DNA of 32,000 nt, taken from Sedimentisphaera cyanobacteriorum. GTDB taxonomy: Bacteria > Planctomycetota > Phycisphaerae > Sedimentisphaerales > Sedimentisphaeraceae. Both the position numbers and the translations under genes were made by a program. A model generated the notes under the pieces. That model had not been told where the DNA came from. It saw only the letters and a list, made by a program, of their open reading frames with translations, and ran no database searches. Each line of letters opens with the position of its first letter. The first letter of the stretch is position 1. Shown piece after piece: positions 16,307 to 30,923 of this stretch. The stretch is taken from assembly GCF_001997385.1 (NCBI RefSeq), contig NZ_CP019633.1:300001-332000 (forward strand), given 5' to 3'.

Positions 16307-17584
16307 ATGAAAATTGACAGAATATCATTAAGGAATTTCCGTCTTGCTTCTGAGGTCAATCTCGAGTTTGACAAGAGGCTCAATGTATTTGTCGGAGTGA
16401 ACGGCTCGGGCAAATCGACAATCCTTGATGCGCTCAGCCTTGCTCTTTCCTGGCTTGTAAGTAAAAGCAAAGCCGGCAAAAAAACAGGGCAGAAAATCGA
16501 CGAAACTGATATAAGATTTAATGAAAAAAGCTGTTCTATTTTGGCATACGCCCATCATGATAAAAAAACATTTAAGTGGCAGGTCAATAAGAGCAGAAAA
16601 GAAAATCTCAAAAACGAAATTTCTGAAATCAACCCATTGATTGACTGTTTCCAGAAGGAAGGTTCTTTCCCTGCTGTATGCTATTATCCCGTTGAGCGTT
16701 CTATAACCGAAAAGATTTCAGGTTCATTGAAGCCTGGTGTTTATCCGCCTGAGGTGATTAAATCCTCACTTTTAGGTAAGGTTGACTACAACCTTCTCTT
16801 CAACTGGATAAGAGAAAGGGAAGACTTGCTCAATCAGAAACTGGCAGAGGCATACCGCAAACACAGAAATAACCCCTCGCAAATGGAGATTGAGCCCGAT
16901 AGGCAATATGAGGCAGTAAAGAAAACCATAGAAACATTTGTGCCTGAGGTGTCTAATATAAAAGTTGATAGAGAAAGCTATTCTGCCGGCGGGGCTTCGC
17001 TGGTTATGGAAAAGGCGGGAGAAACGCTTTCTTTCGATCAGCTCTCCGGCGGTGAAAAGAATCTCATAGCCCTTGCTGGTGATATTGCAATGAGGCTTGT
17101 TAATTCAGCTCCTGAATGCAAAAATCCTCTCGAAAACGAGGGTATTATTCTTATAGATGAAATTGATTTACACTTGCATCCAAGCTGGCAGAGAACTGTT
17201 ATACCGAATCTGCTTGAAGCTTTCCCGAATTGCCAGTTTTTCATTTCAACACATTCCCCGCAGGTGATCAGCAACGTTAGAAAAACGAATCAGGTTTTCT
17301 GTTTGAGGCAGTTAGAGGACGGCCTTGAATCCAGCCACCCGGTTTCCGCAGGAAATGCTCCTTACGGAATGAGCATAGACAGGGTAGTTGAGCTCGTGAT
17401 GGATGATGAGGCGAGGCCGAAGGAGGTAAGCGAAAAACTAAGCAGTGTTTTCCGGCTTATCGAATGGAAAAAATTTGACCAAGCCAAAAGTATTCTCAAT
17501 GAACTGAAAAAAGATATGCCCTCCGAGGATCCGGAAATAATGAGAGCTGATACTCTTATTAGAATGGAGGAGATCAGGAATTGA
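16307..17584 (+). CDS. ABC/SMC-like AAA_15/AAA_21-type ATPase, Septu PtuA-like
   Basis: 425-aa ORF. Walker A is GVNGSGKST (aa 30-38). The ABC signature-like motif is LSGGEKNLIAL, Walker B/D-loop is ILIDEIDLHLHP, and the H-loop is ISTHSP. There is no TOPRIM or other nuclease domain. It is immediately followed by, and overlaps, an HNH gene. Confidence 0.75.
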   Translation: MKIDRISLRNFRLASEVNLEFDKRLNVFVGVNGSGKSTILDALSLALSWLVSKSKAGKKTGQKIDETDIRFNEKSCSILAYAHHDKKTFKWQVNKSRKENLKNEISEINPLIDCFQKEGSFPAVCYYPVERSITEKISGSLKPGVYPPEVIKSSLLGKVDYNLLFNWIREREDLLNQKLAEAYRKHRNNPSQMEIEPDRQYEAVKKTIETFVPEVSNIKVDRESYSAGGASLVMEKAGETLSFDQLSGGEKNLIALAGDIAMRLVNSAPECKNPLENEGIILIDEIDLHLHPSWQRTVIPNLLEAFPNCQFFISTHSPQVISNVRKTNQVFCLRQLEDGLESSHPVSAGNAPYGMSIDRVVELVMDDEARPKEVSEKLSSVFRLIEWKKFDQAKSILNELKKDMPSEDPEIMRADTLIRMEEIRN

Positions 17585-17601
17585 GGCATATCAGGAAAAA
17601 A

Positions 17602-18165
17602 ATGAGTCCTCAAGACTTCGAAAGATGGAAGCGGGGCAGCAGCAGCGCAAACTGGTCTGATTTTACGAAATTAGAGGAAATTTGCCGGAATTTAAAGAAT
17701 TCCCTTTCCCAAGAGCAGAAAGGGAATTGCTGCTATTGCGAGAAAAAAAACGATTGCCAAAACAGCAGGGATTCACATGTGGAGCATTTACTTCCCAGAA
17801 GTAAATACCCTCAAAAAACTTTCGCATACGATAATCTTCTGCTTTCCTGCAACTTTTCTGATTCGTGTGGATTCTCCAAAGGAAACACTTGTATTCCGGT
17901 AGCACCAACGGACCCTGACTGTGAAAAAAGGTTCACTTATACCGGCGACGGGCAGGTTATTCCGGCAGACCCTGAAGACAGCAATGCAGAAAAGACTATT
18001 AAAATACTCGGTCTGAACTCTAAGAGATTAATTGATAATAGAAGGAGTATAATCAGAGAATTGGCAAAAGCATGTCCTGATTATATTTCCAGTGCTGCGG
18101 AAAACTGCAATGAATGGTACAAAGGTTTTTATACAGTAATTAAATACGTTGAAAAGAAATTATAA
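17602..18165 (+). CDS. HNH-type endonuclease, TIGR02646/PtuB-like
   Basis: The track starts at TTG 17581, overlapping the ATPase stop (TTGA). ATG 17602, with AGGA 6 nt upstream, is the alternative I list. The Cys/His core is NCCYCEKK...[13 protein letters not shown]...[19 protein letters not shown]. Size, motif layout and pairing with an AAA_15/21 ATPase match Septu PtuB. Confidence 0.7.
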
Positions 18166-19607: not shown

Positions 19608-19913
19608 ATGACAATGAAAATTGACATACCGAAAGAAAAAATAGCGGAATTCTGCCGTCGAAACGGGATACGCCGGATGTCAGTGTTTGGCTCCGTGCTG
19701 CGTGATGATTTCTCAGGTGAAAGCGATGTCGATGTTTTGGTGGAGTTCGAGCCAGATGTGCATGTGGGGCTGGCGTTTTTCAGGATGGAAAAGGTGTTAT
19801 CGGATATATTTGAACGTAAGGTAGATTTGAATACGCCGGGTTTTTTGAGCAGAGATTTCCGTGAGGATGTAATCAGAGAAGCAGAGGTGTTATATGACGC
19901 AGTGCAAGGATAA
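19608..19913 (+). CDS. mntA: MntA-type minimal nucleotidyltransferase (antitoxin of a HEPN/MNT module)
   Basis: 101-aa ORF. GSVLRDDFSGESDVDVLVEF is the GSx(n)DxD Pol-beta-superfamily NTase motif. It overlaps the downstream HEPN gene by 20 nt. Confidence 0.85.
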   Translation: MTMKIDIPKEKIAEFCRRNGIRRMSVFGSVLRDDFSGESDVDVLVEFEPDVHVGLAFFRMEKVLSDIFERKVDLNTPGFLSRDFREDVIREAEVLYDAVQG

Positions 19914-20241
19914 TATTAAATTACGGCATATGCTCGAACATTCCAGAGAAGCGGTGAAACTGGCTGAAGGTAAAAGCAGGAAAGACCTTGACAGCGACCG
20001 GAAAATGGAACTGGCGTTGACGCGATTAGTGGAGATTATCGGCGAAGCTGCGGCAAGGGTATCAAATCAAACGCAGAATGGGTATTCTGAAATTCCGTGG
20101 TCAGAGATTATTGGTTTGCGTAACCGGCTTATACACGGCTACGATGCGGTTGACATGGATATCCTGTGGGAAATTATTCAAGTTGATTTGCCGGGGCTGA
20201 TCGCAGATTTAGATATAATCATCAAGGAGTTAAGGGAATAG
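19894..20241 (+). CDS. hepT: HepT-type HEPN (DUF86) RNase toxin
   Basis: 115-aa ORF. The Rx4H motif is GLRNRLIHGYDAVDMDILWEII, typical of DUF86/HepT. Confidence 0.85.
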   Translation: MTQCKDNIKLRHMLEHSREAVKLAEGKSRKDLDSDRKMELALTRLVEIIGEAAARVSNQTQNGYSEIPWSEIIGLRNRLIHGYDAVDMDILWEIIQVDLPGLIADLDIIIKELRE

Positions 20242-20576: not shown

Positions 20577-20661
20577 TGCGGATGAGAGGACTCGAACCTC
20601 CACGGGCGTATTGCCCATTAGCACCTGAAGCTAACGCGTCTGCCAATTCCGCCACATCCGC
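20577..20661 (-). tRNA. tRNA-Leu (anticodon CAG), type II with a long variable arm
   Basis: Minus strand: GCGGATG TG GCGG AATTGGCAGA CGC G TTAGC TTCAGGT GCTAA TGGGCAATACGCCCGT GGAGG TTCGAGT CCTCT CATCCGC A. The acceptor stem (7 bp), anticodon stem (5 bp) and variable-arm stem GGGC/GCCC all pair, and the T-loop is TTCGAGT. CCA is not encoded. Confidence 0.93.
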
Positions 20662-28097: not shown

Positions 28098-30068
28098 TCA
28101 CTCTGCAGGCCGATTATCTGTAAGCCAGCTCCCGGCCATTTCAGCAATATCCAGCATATCTACAACGCAGTCCTCATTAGCATCGCCAACTGGATGGGGG
28201 TGGTTCAAATCTCCGCATCGCGGCTCCGGCGATACAATGTATGTTTCGTATGGTCCGAGATCTCCGTAAACTTTCATATAATAATACTTACCTTCGATTA
28301 AGTTTAGAGAATCTTCTGCAGAATTTCCCCCCTTATAGTCGCTTGAACCGCGCATGTAATTGTACAGCCCTGCAGTCTCTTCTACGAAAAATTGCAAATA
28401 CACATAGCCTGCGGCGGATAAATTTTCCAATCCCAGGGTGTAAGTTCCCGTCATAGGAGCGATGAACTTGAGAAAATCAAAGTCTGTGTTTATATTTGCT
28501 GAGTAATTTATTTCGCCGCTCTGTCTCGTTCCGTCTAGCTGAGAAAAAAGAGTCGCATTTTCAAAAGTATTGCCGTGGTCCTCTTCCTGCAAACCCAAAT
28601 CTATTACGCTCAGATTGTAATATTCGCCAATCTTCGAATCATTTCCAAGTACATTAATCTTATAGAAACCGTCGTACAAGGATACCATTGTGGCGTAATT
28701 ATAATTTATGTTTTGAAGCAGGCTGCAATCATTATCGTATAATTTGAAATTAACGTTTGAGTAATCCGAAGCAGTAAGAACAATCTCGTATTTATGCAGA
28801 CGCTGCGTTTCAAATTTGAACCAGTCTGTGTCAATGGGGATGCTGTTTGCAGGGTCTGATCTGTTTATTGTTCCATCGATGGCCGGCTCGCCGACAATTA
28901 TTTCGCTTGCTGTGGAGCAGTCGTTGGAGTAGCTGTCTTCCGGGAAGGCCTCGAGAATCTTTGCTCCAACAGAATAGTCGCCTAAGTAGCCGCTGCCGTA
29001 AATTTTGTAATAAACTGGAGCGTCCTTTTCTATGAAAACATCAAAGGTTTCCGCCTTGTTCCAAGTTGCTGTTAAGAAGTAAGAAATTAACTCCCCATAA
29101 TCGTTTTCCTGAAAAACCTGAATATACTTGTAGCCCCCGTTGTTGCGGCTTACTATTGTAATCCTGTAAAGTGTTTCCGCCTGCGGGGTGAATTTAAACC
29201 AATCAAAATCCGGATTCAGATCCTGATTGTATTCGATGGAGCCTTCTGTTAAATCTGCCCCGGGAGTGATTTCAACTGCCTGATCGCTGAAATTCGGATA
29301 GTCATCCTGCATTACTCCGAGGTCTGTAACCTGAAGGTTGTAGTATTCTCCTTTTTCATACTGCCCGCCGGCGACTTTGATTTTATAGTTCTCCCCATTG
29401 AGAGATACAATAGTTCTGGAAGTTCCGCTGAGGTTTACAGGCTCGCAGTCTTCATAATAAAGCCAAAAGTTCATATTTCTGTTGTCAGCATCGCCTAGCA
29501 GTATCTGATACCTGTGCATCTGCTCTGCCTCGAATTCAAACCAGTCTTCATCTGCAGGCAGCTGAAGGATAGGGTCGAAGTGCGTTATTGTGCCTTCTAT
29601 CAGCGTATCAAGGGCAATCATAGTAGGCGAGGAGCAGTCATCGGAGTATGAATCCTCGGGATAAGTTCCAAGAGCTGCTGCTTGCACAGAATAATTGCCT
29701 TCGCTGCCCCAAATCCTTATGCATACATCCTCTGCCGGCTCAATGAAGACATCCTTCGTCAGCGAACCTGAGTGAATAGCGTCTGAGGTCTGTCTTTCGC
29801 TTGTGCCGAGTGCATCAACGAAATAAATCTCCATATATTTATAGCCGTTTGCTGTGGAGTCGAGCGAGATTCTGTACAGAGTTACGCCCGGGCTTGAAAA
29901 CTTGAACCAGTCATTATCACCGCTTGGCGTGAGAGTGCCGTAAATCTCTCCAGAGCCGGGAACTATAACTTCAGCGGTCGAAATGTCACCACCATAGTCG
30001 GGGTCTTCCGCAAGGCACGGAAAAGATGCAAAAAAACAGGCTGCACCAATAATTAAACAAATCTTCAT
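28098..30068 (-). CDS. Secreted protein with five PPC-like (pre-peptidase C-terminal type) beta-sandwich domains in A-B-A-B-A order and a dockerin-like C-terminus
   Basis: I prefer the start at M26 of the track ORF (ATG 30068..30066, AAGGAG upstream), giving the signal MKICLIIGAACFFASFPCLA. DWF(K/E)F motifs recur: NDWFKFSS, EDWFEFEA, FDWFKFTP, TDWFKFET, FDFLKFIA. The two B modules share FPEDSYS(D/N)DCS and GEYYNL(Q/S)V(T/I)DLG. The tail GDANEDCVVDMLDIAEMAGSWL resembles a dockerin/EF-hand repeat. Confidence 0.75.
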   Translation of the reverse strand: MKICLIIGAACFFASFPCLAEDPDYGGDISTAEVIVPGSGEIYGTLTPSGDNDWFKFSSPGVTLYRISLDSTANGYKYMEIYFVDALGTSERQTSDAIHSGSLTKDVFIEPAEDVCIRIWGSEGNYSVQAAALGTYPEDSYSDDCSSPTMIALDTLIEGTITHFDPILQLPADEDWFEFEAEQMHRYQILLGDADNRNMNFWLYYEDCEPVNLSGTSRTIVSLNGENYKIKVAGGQYEKGEYYNLQVTDLGVMQDDYPNFSDQAVEITPGADLTEGSIEYNQDLNPDFDWFKFTPQAETLYRITIVSRNNGGYKYIQVFQENDYGELISYFLTATWNKAETFDVFIEKDAPVYYKIYGSGYLGDYSVGAKILEAFPEDSYSNDCSTASEIIVGEPAIDGTINRSDPANSIPIDTDWFKFETQRLHKYEIVLTASDYSNVNFKLYDNDCSLLQNINYNYATMVSLYDGFYKINVLGNDSKIGEYYNLSVIDLGLQEEDHGNTFENATLFSQLDGTRQSGEINYSANINTDFDFLKFIAPMTGTYTLGLENLSAAGYVYLQFFVEETAGLYNYMRGSSDYKGGNSAEDSLNLIEGKYYYMKVYGDLGPYETYIVSPEPRCGDLNHPHPVGDANEDCVVDMLDIAEMAGSWLTDNRPAE

Positions 30069-30257
30069 AAATGAACTCCTTAAAAAAAAGTGAACTGTTT
30101 TGTTTTTTTTATCATAGCAGACTTGAATCGTTTTCTGATACAAAATTTTCCCAAAACCTTCTTTTTTTTAACCAAACTGGTAAAAATTCCTTTTGGCGGG
30201 GCTTTTTATTGTTCTTTCCGCAATCAATTTCACATCTTGGAAGGCAGATTTTGCGTG

Positions 30258-30830
30258 TGCGACAATATTTTCCGGCAAAACGCAAATCTTCATGCTGAAT
30301 GCTTTGCAGAATTTATTATCTATTTACTGAGCCAGCGGTTCGCTGCTTAATAATGCAGCGTCGTACAGCGGTGTAATATGAAGAGTCTATTCGTTGTGTC
30401 GGCTTAGCGGGCGACTTGCGTCGCTCCGCTGTAGTACGGGGGATGTTTAACATTGAGCCTGTCCGCCGAAGGCGGAGAGGTATCGGAGAAATGCAGATAA
30501 ATGTTCGTTTCGTGAAATCGCAGCGAAGTTTATTATCCACAGATAGCACGGATGGCACAGATGTTTTTATGAGTGTAAAAGCTTGCGATAAAACAATTTA
30601 TATCAAAATCCTTCGTGCCCTTCGAGCCCTTCGCGGTTTAAACCAATTCCACGAGGATTAAAAAAATACCCGCCCAAAAATCTTTCTCCGCCTTTTCCTT
30701 ATCAAATATCTATCCTGTCAATCCTGTAAATCCCGTCTAAAAAACCTCCCCTCTGTTTACTCTCCGCCTCCGGCGGAGAGTAAGCGGATAGATACGGCTT
30801 TAAAAAGCTTTGCCGGAAAATATTGTCGCA
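30258..30830. repeat. 573-bp noncoding element bounded by a perfect 22-bp inverted repeat, containing hairpins and 9-bp-period heptamer triplets
   Basis: TGCGACAATATTTTCCGGCAAA (30258-30279) is the exact reverse complement of TTTGCCGGAAAATATTGTCGCA (30809-30830). Internal structure is detailed in the findings. Only short, Arg-rich or repeat-derived ORFs overlap it. Confidence 0.7.
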
Positions 30831-30923
30831 TAGTATTTTGCTGTATCAGCGATTATTTTTTGTGTTTGCAGTTGTTTCTGTTAGAATAGCGGGAAATTAT
30901 GAAATATAGACTAAGAGGTAGAA

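Follow-up and report, generated by a model that had tools for sequence, protein, structure and literature searches.

A perfect 22-bp inverted repeat around a 573-bp intergenic element upstream of hflK in Sedimentisphaera cyanobacteriorum: possible DNA inversion within a genus-specific repeat island

How does a perfect 22-bp inverted repeat come to enclose more than 500 bp of noncoding DNA between two genes of a bacterial chromosome, and can the DNA between its arms turn around? We addressed this question for a 573-bp element upstream of hflK in Sedimentisphaera cyanobacteriorum, at positions 30258–30830 of the 32,000-nucleotide stretch of contig NZ_CP019633.1 analysed here (the window, to which all coordinates refer unless a locus is named). 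The element was compared with the corresponding loci, L003 and L004, of two S. salicampi genomes and with loci of more distant relatives. The 32-kb window represents only about 1% of the S. cyanobacteriorum genome, and statements on copy number cover the window and the sequence collections scanned. The answer we tentatively favour, at a little short of even confidence, is that the 22-bp repeat is the product and a possible substrate of DNA inversion within a repeat island specific to the genus.

The left arm of the repeat, TGCGACAATATTTTCCGGCAAA (30258–30279), and the right arm, TTTGCCGGAAAATATTGTCGCA (30809–30830), are exact reverse complements of each other (22/22) with 529 bp between them. 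The inverted repeat reported in an earlier note on this DNA was thereby confirmed base by base, and it lies far beyond chance expectation. No further copy of the 22-mer was found in the window at up to three mismatches, nor in 100 dinucleotide-preserving shuffles. A listing of perfect inverted repeats with arms of 13 bp or more and a spacing of up to 3 kb, made for approximately 100 kb of Sedimentisphaera and related DNA (the window plus six related loci), contained no other repeat longer than 14 bp. The inverted repeat is sharply bounded, and the arm sequence has ends of the TG...CA type. The outer 9 nt of each arm read TGCGACAAT, one mismatch from the extended −10 consensus TGnTAnAAT (30258–30266 on the plus strand and 30830–30822 on the minus strand). 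These motifs point into the element from both ends, where they might drive convergent transcription, and the copy on the hflK side is kept in S. salicampi. The left arm is in addition enclosed by the 7-bp stem TTTGCGT / ACGCAAA that the note had described (30250–30286; halves at 30250–30256 and 30280–30286). Removing the 23-nt insert within which the left arm lies joins the two halves into a perfect 14-bp palindrome.

The element lies in the spacer between hflK, whose product is 100% identical to the HflK of S. cyanobacteriorum, and a divergently transcribed gene for a secreted protein (28098–30068, minus strand). This protein of 656 aa combines a signal peptide and internal repeats with a dockerin-like C-terminus, and it has no match in Pfam. 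Its gene most likely starts at the ATG at 30068, which yields a protein matching L21SP3_00232 at 100%. With the start moved to this position, the spacer measures 855 bp (30069–30923); the gap had been located correctly before, but its length had been given as 780 bp. The distances reported for the two 22-mers, about 190 nt upstream of the secreted-protein gene and about 94 nt upstream of hflK, were both correct. A search of 5.8 billion proteins returned three relatives of the secreted protein: itself, its S. salicampi homologue (83% identity), and one metagenomic protein (37%). The gene is a near-orphan and evolves fast.

The element appears to sit between two conserved, outward-facing extended −10 promoters, one for each flanking gene. 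The putative extended −10 of hflK is TGTTAGAAT (30879–30887, plus strand), with TGTTAAAAT at the same place in S. salicampi. That of the secreted-protein gene is TGCTATGAT (30111–30119, minus strand), with TGCTATAAT in S. salicampi. Both were assigned by consensus match and conservation, and both lie outside the element. The right arm is positioned at approximately −74 relative to the predicted hflK promoter, that is, about 74 nt upstream of the predicted transcription start, and the left arm at approximately −164 relative to that of the secreted-protein gene.

Comparison with S. salicampi indicated how the two arms are likely to have arisen. Both S. salicampi genomes carry the same gene pair (HflK 96% identical, secreted protein 83% identical), with a spacer of 1.6–1.8 kb at the same site. 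Gene-proximal DNA is conserved on both sides, as seen in two flank alignments, and between the conserved flanks lie approximately 1.3–1.5 kb of repetitive DNA. The 22-bp inverted repeat is absent from the S. salicampi spacers. The right arm corresponds to S. salicampi CTCGCC(C/A)CAAAAAATTGTCGCA at 17 of 22 positions and at the same distance from hflK. A similar level, a mean column identity of 86%, is seen in the adjoining hflK promoter region. Neither S. salicampi locus has a counterpart of the left arm; conservation of the left flank stops at GGCAGA..GATTTT, about 5 bp before the arm. Because the right arm is largely kept in S. salicampi and the left arm is missing there, the right arm is the ancestral copy and the left arm a species-specific inverted duplicate, probably a young one. 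In this region the two species differ by approximately 10–25%, and exact identity of the arms against this background implies that the copy is young or that identity is under constraint. Constraint on identity is a trait of recombination sites.

The interior of the element can also be aligned in part to the S. salicampi spacer. Positions 30707–30804 align to L003 3715–3826 in the same orientation, with a score of 88 (the maximum of 50 shuffles was 50). In the S. salicampi counterpart, three ATCCTGT-like words precede CTCTCCGCC-tcc-GGCGGA and a GCGGAT..AGAT tail. Positions 30284–30528 align, more weakly, to the reverse complement of L003 4492–4763, with a score of 64 (maximum of 50 shuffles, 50), and this L003 segment lies near hflK in S. 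salicampi. Together, these alignments imply that at least part of the interior is present in the opposite orientation and on the opposite side of the spacer in the two species, which is in line with inversion.

The element is the S. cyanobacteriorum version of a fast-evolving repeat island with fixed borders that is limited to the genus Sedimentisphaera. In S. salicampi the flanks hardly differ from one strain to the other, whereas comparison of the spacers shows swapped modules, 62 bp inserted at the left border, and an additional whole unit of 198 bp. The most recognizable component of the island is a family of GC-rich palindromes, YCCGCC-N3-GGCGGR, found twice in the window spacer and five to six times in each S. 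salicampi spacer. The inner 6 bp are paired in all 11 distinct copies from the two species, with variable loops and outer positions. A double change from TA to CG occurs in two of the 11. The covariation of the family is weak, its observed score being reached in 13 of 500 shuffles. No palindrome of this family was found outside the spacer in the window's other 31 kb, the flanks of L003 and L004, or loci L005–L009 and L135, a small sample of about 100 kb in which a low-copy family could go unseen. More generally, the motifs of the element were confined to this spacer: the rest of the window, the S. salicampi flanks, and the more distant relatives yielded none of them. At loci with HflK of 60–69% identity, and at that of the sole distant homologue of the secreted protein, the upstream regions are short and ordinary and lack these motifs. 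The island is considered genus-specific on the basis of these absences and of the short, ordinary upstream regions of the distant relatives.

The vocabulary of the island comprises the YCCGCC-N3-GGCGGR palindromes and arrays of about three copies of 8–10-bp words, turned over quickly by local duplication, slippage, and cassette-like replacement. On the inversion reading, ancestral sequence just upstream of the hflK promoter would have been copied in inverted orientation to the opposite edge of the island, giving the 22-bp inverted repeat. A sharply bounded perfect repeat with one ancestral arm and one new, inverted arm at the far border is the trace expected of an inversion or an inverted duplication, and inversion in turn requires two identical sites of this kind. 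The 529-bp interior, now between such sites, could then flip through a site-specific recombinase or, in rare cases, through homologous exchange. If a recombinase acted at the 22-mers, positions 30280–30808 would flip and both promoters would stay fixed. Such a flip would swap which palindromes and word arrays, which are likely protein-binding sites, adjoin which promoter. In the present layout, the module of ATCCTGT words and hairpin adjoins hflK, and the hairpins at 30333–30480 adjoin the secreted-protein gene.

The length of the segment and its secreted-protein neighbour match the usual setting of invertible segments, for example fimS, hin, and the invertons of Bacteroides. The arms of 22 bp and the 529 bp between them fall within the size range of invertons (arms of approximately 10–35 bp, approximately 0.1–1 kb apart). 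As in Escherichia coli fimS, Salmonella hin, and the polysaccharide promoters of Bacteroides fragilis, short identical inverted repeats surround a few hundred intergenic base pairs, and a secreted or surface protein is encoded alongside. Candidate protein-binding sites are abundant in the interior, as in those systems. Unlike those systems, the element has no recombinase gene nearby and no evident outward promoter inside, the promoters of the flanking genes appear to lie outside it, and its left arm is not conserved in S. salicampi.

Some of these differences, along with further observations, weigh against inversion. No outward-facing match to a sigma-70-like or extended −10 promoter was detected inside 30280–30808, where the search was guided by promoter rules that are poorly known for this phylum. 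With both flanking genes appearing to have their own promoters outside, the segment would therefore not be a classical invertible promoter. Nor can a simple inversion turn the S. salicampi order into that of the interior, whose best-conserved module has the same orientation in both species. The open reading frames (ORFs) of at least 120 aa scanned across the 32-kb window included no tyrosine or serine recombinase, integrase, invertase, or transposase, and the genes called downstream of hflK in S. salicampi included no recombinase. When the strains of S. salicampi, both without the 22-bp repeat, were compared with each other, no inverted segments were seen. Finally, arms of 22 bp are of about the minimum length for RecA-dependent exchange.

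With these points considered, inversion would have created the repeat or would use it. Within this reading, a one-off rearrangement takes about two-thirds of the weight and a programmed switch in active use about one-third. Judged on its own, an active phase-variation switch, with a recombinase encoded at a distance flipping a promoter-less 529-bp cassette of binding arrays between fixed divergent promoters, is improbable.

The interior is dense in short repeats. Three triplets of period 9 were present where they had been reported earlier: CACAGAT / CACGGAT / CACAGAT (30538–30562), three copies of CCTTCG (30610–30633), and three copies of ATCCTGT (30712–30736). Tandem Repeats Finder placed them at 30538–30563, 30610–30633, and 30712–30737, with a period of 9 and 2.7–2.9 copies each. 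A scan for triple words detected these three loci in 573 bp compared to 0.01 expected (500 shuffles), and five in the whole window. The CACAGAT array resembles arrays of CACAGAGG or CGGAGG words in S. salicampi. Across the two species, the arrays keep about three copies and a period of 8–10 bp, though the words themselves differ.

The four hairpins and the half palindrome described before were likewise all recovered, and the hairpins, like the triplets, go far beyond chance. A small hairpin, CAGCG-gtt-CGCTG (30333–30345), and the hairpin AGCGGGCGAC-ttgc-GTCGC(t)CCGCT (30406–30430) were seen both in the sequence and in predicted folds. Hairpins A and B carry the conserved palindrome. Hairpin A (30458–30480) has a stem of 10 bp with one mismatch and a GAA loop. 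Hairpin B, TTACTCTCCGCC-tcc-GGCGGAGAGTAA (30755–30785), has a perfect 12-bp stem at 30757–30783 that can be extended to 14 bp with one mismatch. The half palindrome TCTCCGCC is located at 30685–30692. The order of arm, palindrome, and word array is mirrored from both ends of the element. The notion that its halves are tandem or inverted copies of one another was rejected, the palindrome alone being common to both. The best-conserved module (30707–30794) is formed by the 9-bp inverted repeat TATCTATCC / GGATAGATA around the ATCCTGT array and hairpin B, and has a fold z-score of −5.9. Closed by its own inverted repeat, this module gives the locus a nested layout of an element within an element.

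When the pattern ATCCTGTnnATCYTGTnnATCC was searched for in viral sequences, it matched at least 120 contigs, often in long runs with 9-bp spacing. These matches are probably collagen-like Gly-X-Y coding repeats, mostly in giant-virus bins, and unrelated to the element; they are a trap for motif searches.

The S. salicampi spacers contain a central block of about 600 bp (L003 3830–4440; L004 3695–4330) that is absent from the window. It includes 17-bp tandem CCGAAAACCnGACCGGTAGG repeats, iteron-like GTGTGGGAAAAACGTTCAC repeats at spacings of 23, 57, and 80 bp, and GTGGGAG-aaa-CTCCCAC hairpins, and it is bracketed by direct repeats of 82–105 bp. From its sequence, the block looks like a relic of a small integrated replicon or element. 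It had no match in the plasmid or viral collections.

The element matches no described family, but its kind is familiar: an intergenic repeat element bounded by an inverted repeat and rich in palindromes. The BIME/REP arrays of E. coli and the NIMEs of Neisseria, in which blocks are parted by dRS3 palindromes, likewise combine clusters of short GC-rich palindromes with variable blocks, strain-variable copy number and block content, and adjacent genes for exported proteins. Members of those families are scattered over tens to hundreds of loci, whereas the palindrome here was found at one locus in the roughly 100 kb sampled. The island also differs in lying between divergent promoters and not at the 3' ends of genes.

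Four candidate explanations had been left unranked in the earlier note, and an invertible or once-inverted segment, which fits the perfect inverted repeat best, was not considered there. The alternative that survives best is one of those four, a non-autonomous transposon of the miniature inverted-repeat transposable element (MITE) type. A transposase encoded elsewhere would bind the 22-mers, with the hairpins and subterminal arrays as extra binding sites. The perfect terminal inverted repeats beginning TG...CA point this way, as does the small (573 bp), noncoding, and structure-rich unit they bound. The mirrored order of arm, palindrome, and word array resembles subterminal binding sites, and related elements may have piled up to form the S. 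salicampi island. MITEs such as the Correia elements of Neisseria share with the element its terminal inverted repeats, its small, noncoding, and hairpin-rich make-up, and its intergenic position near promoters.

The features that would mark a transposition event are missing. No direct repeat of 2–10 bp, or of any other length, abuts the arms, which are flanked by ...TTTGCGTG on the left and TAGTATTT... on the right (ending ...GCGTG and beginning TAGTA..., respectively). In place of an empty site, the matching position in S. salicampi is occupied by a homologous island, and ordinary hflK-upstream sequence there accounts for 17 of the 22 positions of the right terminal repeat; one end of the supposed element is thus mostly ancestral host sequence. 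No second copy of the 22-mer or of any module was detected in the window's other 31 kb or outside the L003 and L004 spacers, and no transposase was found among the ORFs scanned in the window. No related sequence turned up in scans of genome, metagenome, viral, plasmid, and phage collections; the 22-mer (or its 20-nt core) had three exact matches there, all taken as chance. The single match to the 20-nt core in the genome scan was to a cyanobacterial metagenome-assembled genome, with about one chance match expected for a 20-mer in 596 Gb. The single metagenome match to the full 22-mer fell inside an ORF of a eukaryote-like contig, by eye a uridine kinase gene. The MITE candidate is thus borne out in its terminal inverted repeats and small noncoding unit but not in a target-site duplication or an empty site, and we regard it as unlikely.

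Alternatively, the island may be a protein-binding platform, on which palindromes, 9-bp arrays, and 22-mers serve as operators for regulators or nucleoid proteins that form a complex or loop with no rearrangement. This is a doubtful explanation, although several properties of the island are consistent with it. The palindrome core is invariant in all 11 distinct copies from two species while the loops vary, with one kind of compensatory change (TA to CG), and the motif is confined to the spacer in the DNA sampled. The arrays keep their copy number and period despite the change in words, and the right 22-mer has a conserved position upstream of the hflK promoter. Exact 22/22 identity, however, is unexpected for operators that are maintained independently, and the arms are at non-equivalent distances from the two promoters (approximately −74 and −164). 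The number and order of sites vary even between strains of one species, which is unusual for regulatory architecture. No regulator gene is adjacent, and the more distant relatives express hflK without such a spacer.

Two of the four earlier candidates also invoke protein binding. A duplicated operator coordinating the two genes agrees with an ancestral right copy at about −74 of the hflK promoter, but not with a left copy that is exact, species-specific, and at about −164; this suggestion is weakly supported. The internal palindromes and 9-bp words could form an iteron-like array, but the neighbourhood contains neither a rep nor a par gene. Plasmid iteron and centromere-like arrays, such as R1 parC, the pSM19035 heptads bound by omega, and the metbox arrays of MetJ, resemble the element in having tandem short words with a period of 7–11 bp, about three or more copies per array, and both orientations. 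The element differs from them in lacking an adjacent rep, par, or ribbon-helix-helix gene, in the use of different words in different arrays, and in being chromosomal with housekeeping neighbours.

The island could also be a neutral by-product, a slippage-prone junk spacer in which a template-switch replication error produced an inverted repeat that was never reused. The spacer is hypervariable between strains, the more distant relatives have no island, and no search returned a signal linked to function, all of which would agree with neutrality. Against this, two species that share only 83% identity in the secreted protein have both kept an island at this site, and its palindrome core is strictly conserved; the two facts imply some maintenance, whether selfish or functional. 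The microhomology expected of a template switch is not visible at the outer junction. We consider a purely neutral origin to have a low probability. It overlaps with the one-off branch of the inversion reading.

A large structured noncoding RNA of about 570 nt, closed by a 22-bp helix of the two arms, is very improbable. The fold is far more stable than that of shuffled sequences on both strands (z = −7.9 plus, −6.0 minus), and one S. salicampi copy of the palindrome contains a T-G pair (pair 7/17) that would be tolerated on the plus strand only. Both strands score alike, as DNA palindromes would, and the strong z-scores are accordingly attributed to these palindromes. They were the sole support for the structured RNA locus suggested earlier, and a DNA palindrome gives such scores anyway. 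A perfect 22-bp Watson–Crick helix without wobble is atypical of conserved RNAs, the closing helix is absent in S. salicampi, and no promoter or terminator was detected for such a transcript. The hairpin family adds only the weak covariation given above. A covariance search of the element with Rfam 15 yielded nothing, whether gathering thresholds or a cutoff of E ≤ 10 were applied, and the S. salicampi loci likewise gave no match. The statement that the element belongs to no known RNA family was therefore upheld.

The remaining identities were rejected. A gene remnant or small protein is contradicted by the six-frame translation, which had no relative at E ≤ 10 among the 5.8 billion proteins, and by the two internal ORFs, which had no Pfam match; these ORFs had already been dismissed as real proteins in the note, which had also judged the element noncoding, and both judgements stand. 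For a replication origin, the spacer contains one DnaA box (30533–30541), boxes with at most one mismatch occur here and there throughout the window without clustering, the GC skew reflects nothing but gene orientation, and the neighbouring locus tag is 00232. No parS site was found within three mismatches, which dismisses a centromere. For a CsrB-like GGA sponge RNA, GGA is mildly enriched on both strands and mostly palindrome-derived, and ANGGA is not enriched. A short small RNA on the minus strand, running from the promoter-like TGCGACAAT in the right arm to hairpin B and a U6 run, was not supported (modest fold, z = −2.6; U-run not conserved in S. salicampi). Viral, plasmid, and phage searches returned nothing relevant.

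The other genes of the window are housekeeping genes, including trp genes and those for pyruvate formate-lyase, sulfate assimilation, SurA, and MetY. Two further systems were observed among them. A Septu anti-phage defence pair, consisting of the PtuA ATPase (16307–17584, plus strand; PADLOC E = 1e-118) and the PtuB nuclease (17581–18165, plus strand; E = 2e-46), is placed between sulfate-assimilation genes (PAPS reductase, TauE) and a CysN-like GTPase. An overlapping MNT-HEPN toxin-antitoxin pair, comprising a nucleotidyltransferase (19608–19913, plus strand) and a HepT-like protein (19894–20241, plus strand), was recognized by Pfam (E = 2e-12 and 1e-24, respectively). It adjoins tRNA-Leu(CAG) (20577–20661, minus strand), in a 1.6-kb stretch that otherwise holds the tRNA gene only.

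If the segment upstream of hflK does act as a switch, each flip would exchange upstream control sequences between the gene for a secreted, dockerin-tailed protein and those for the HflKC membrane-protease modulators. Such a switch would join the few cases of DNA inversion from bacteria that are not host-associated, with an invertible part that carries upstream sites and not a promoter, and would be, to our knowledge, the first in Planctomycetota. The wider island would then represent a class of fast-evolving cis-regulatory mosaic that is specific to one locus and has not been described before, in a planctomycete that lives free and anaerobically. If the segment does not flip, the locus would offer a clean case of a perfect inverted repeat arising from ordinary promoter-upstream sequence in a changing island, and such repeats would be a source of false positives for finders of invertons and MITEs that use sequence only. 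In both cases, the consequences stay within one small genus.

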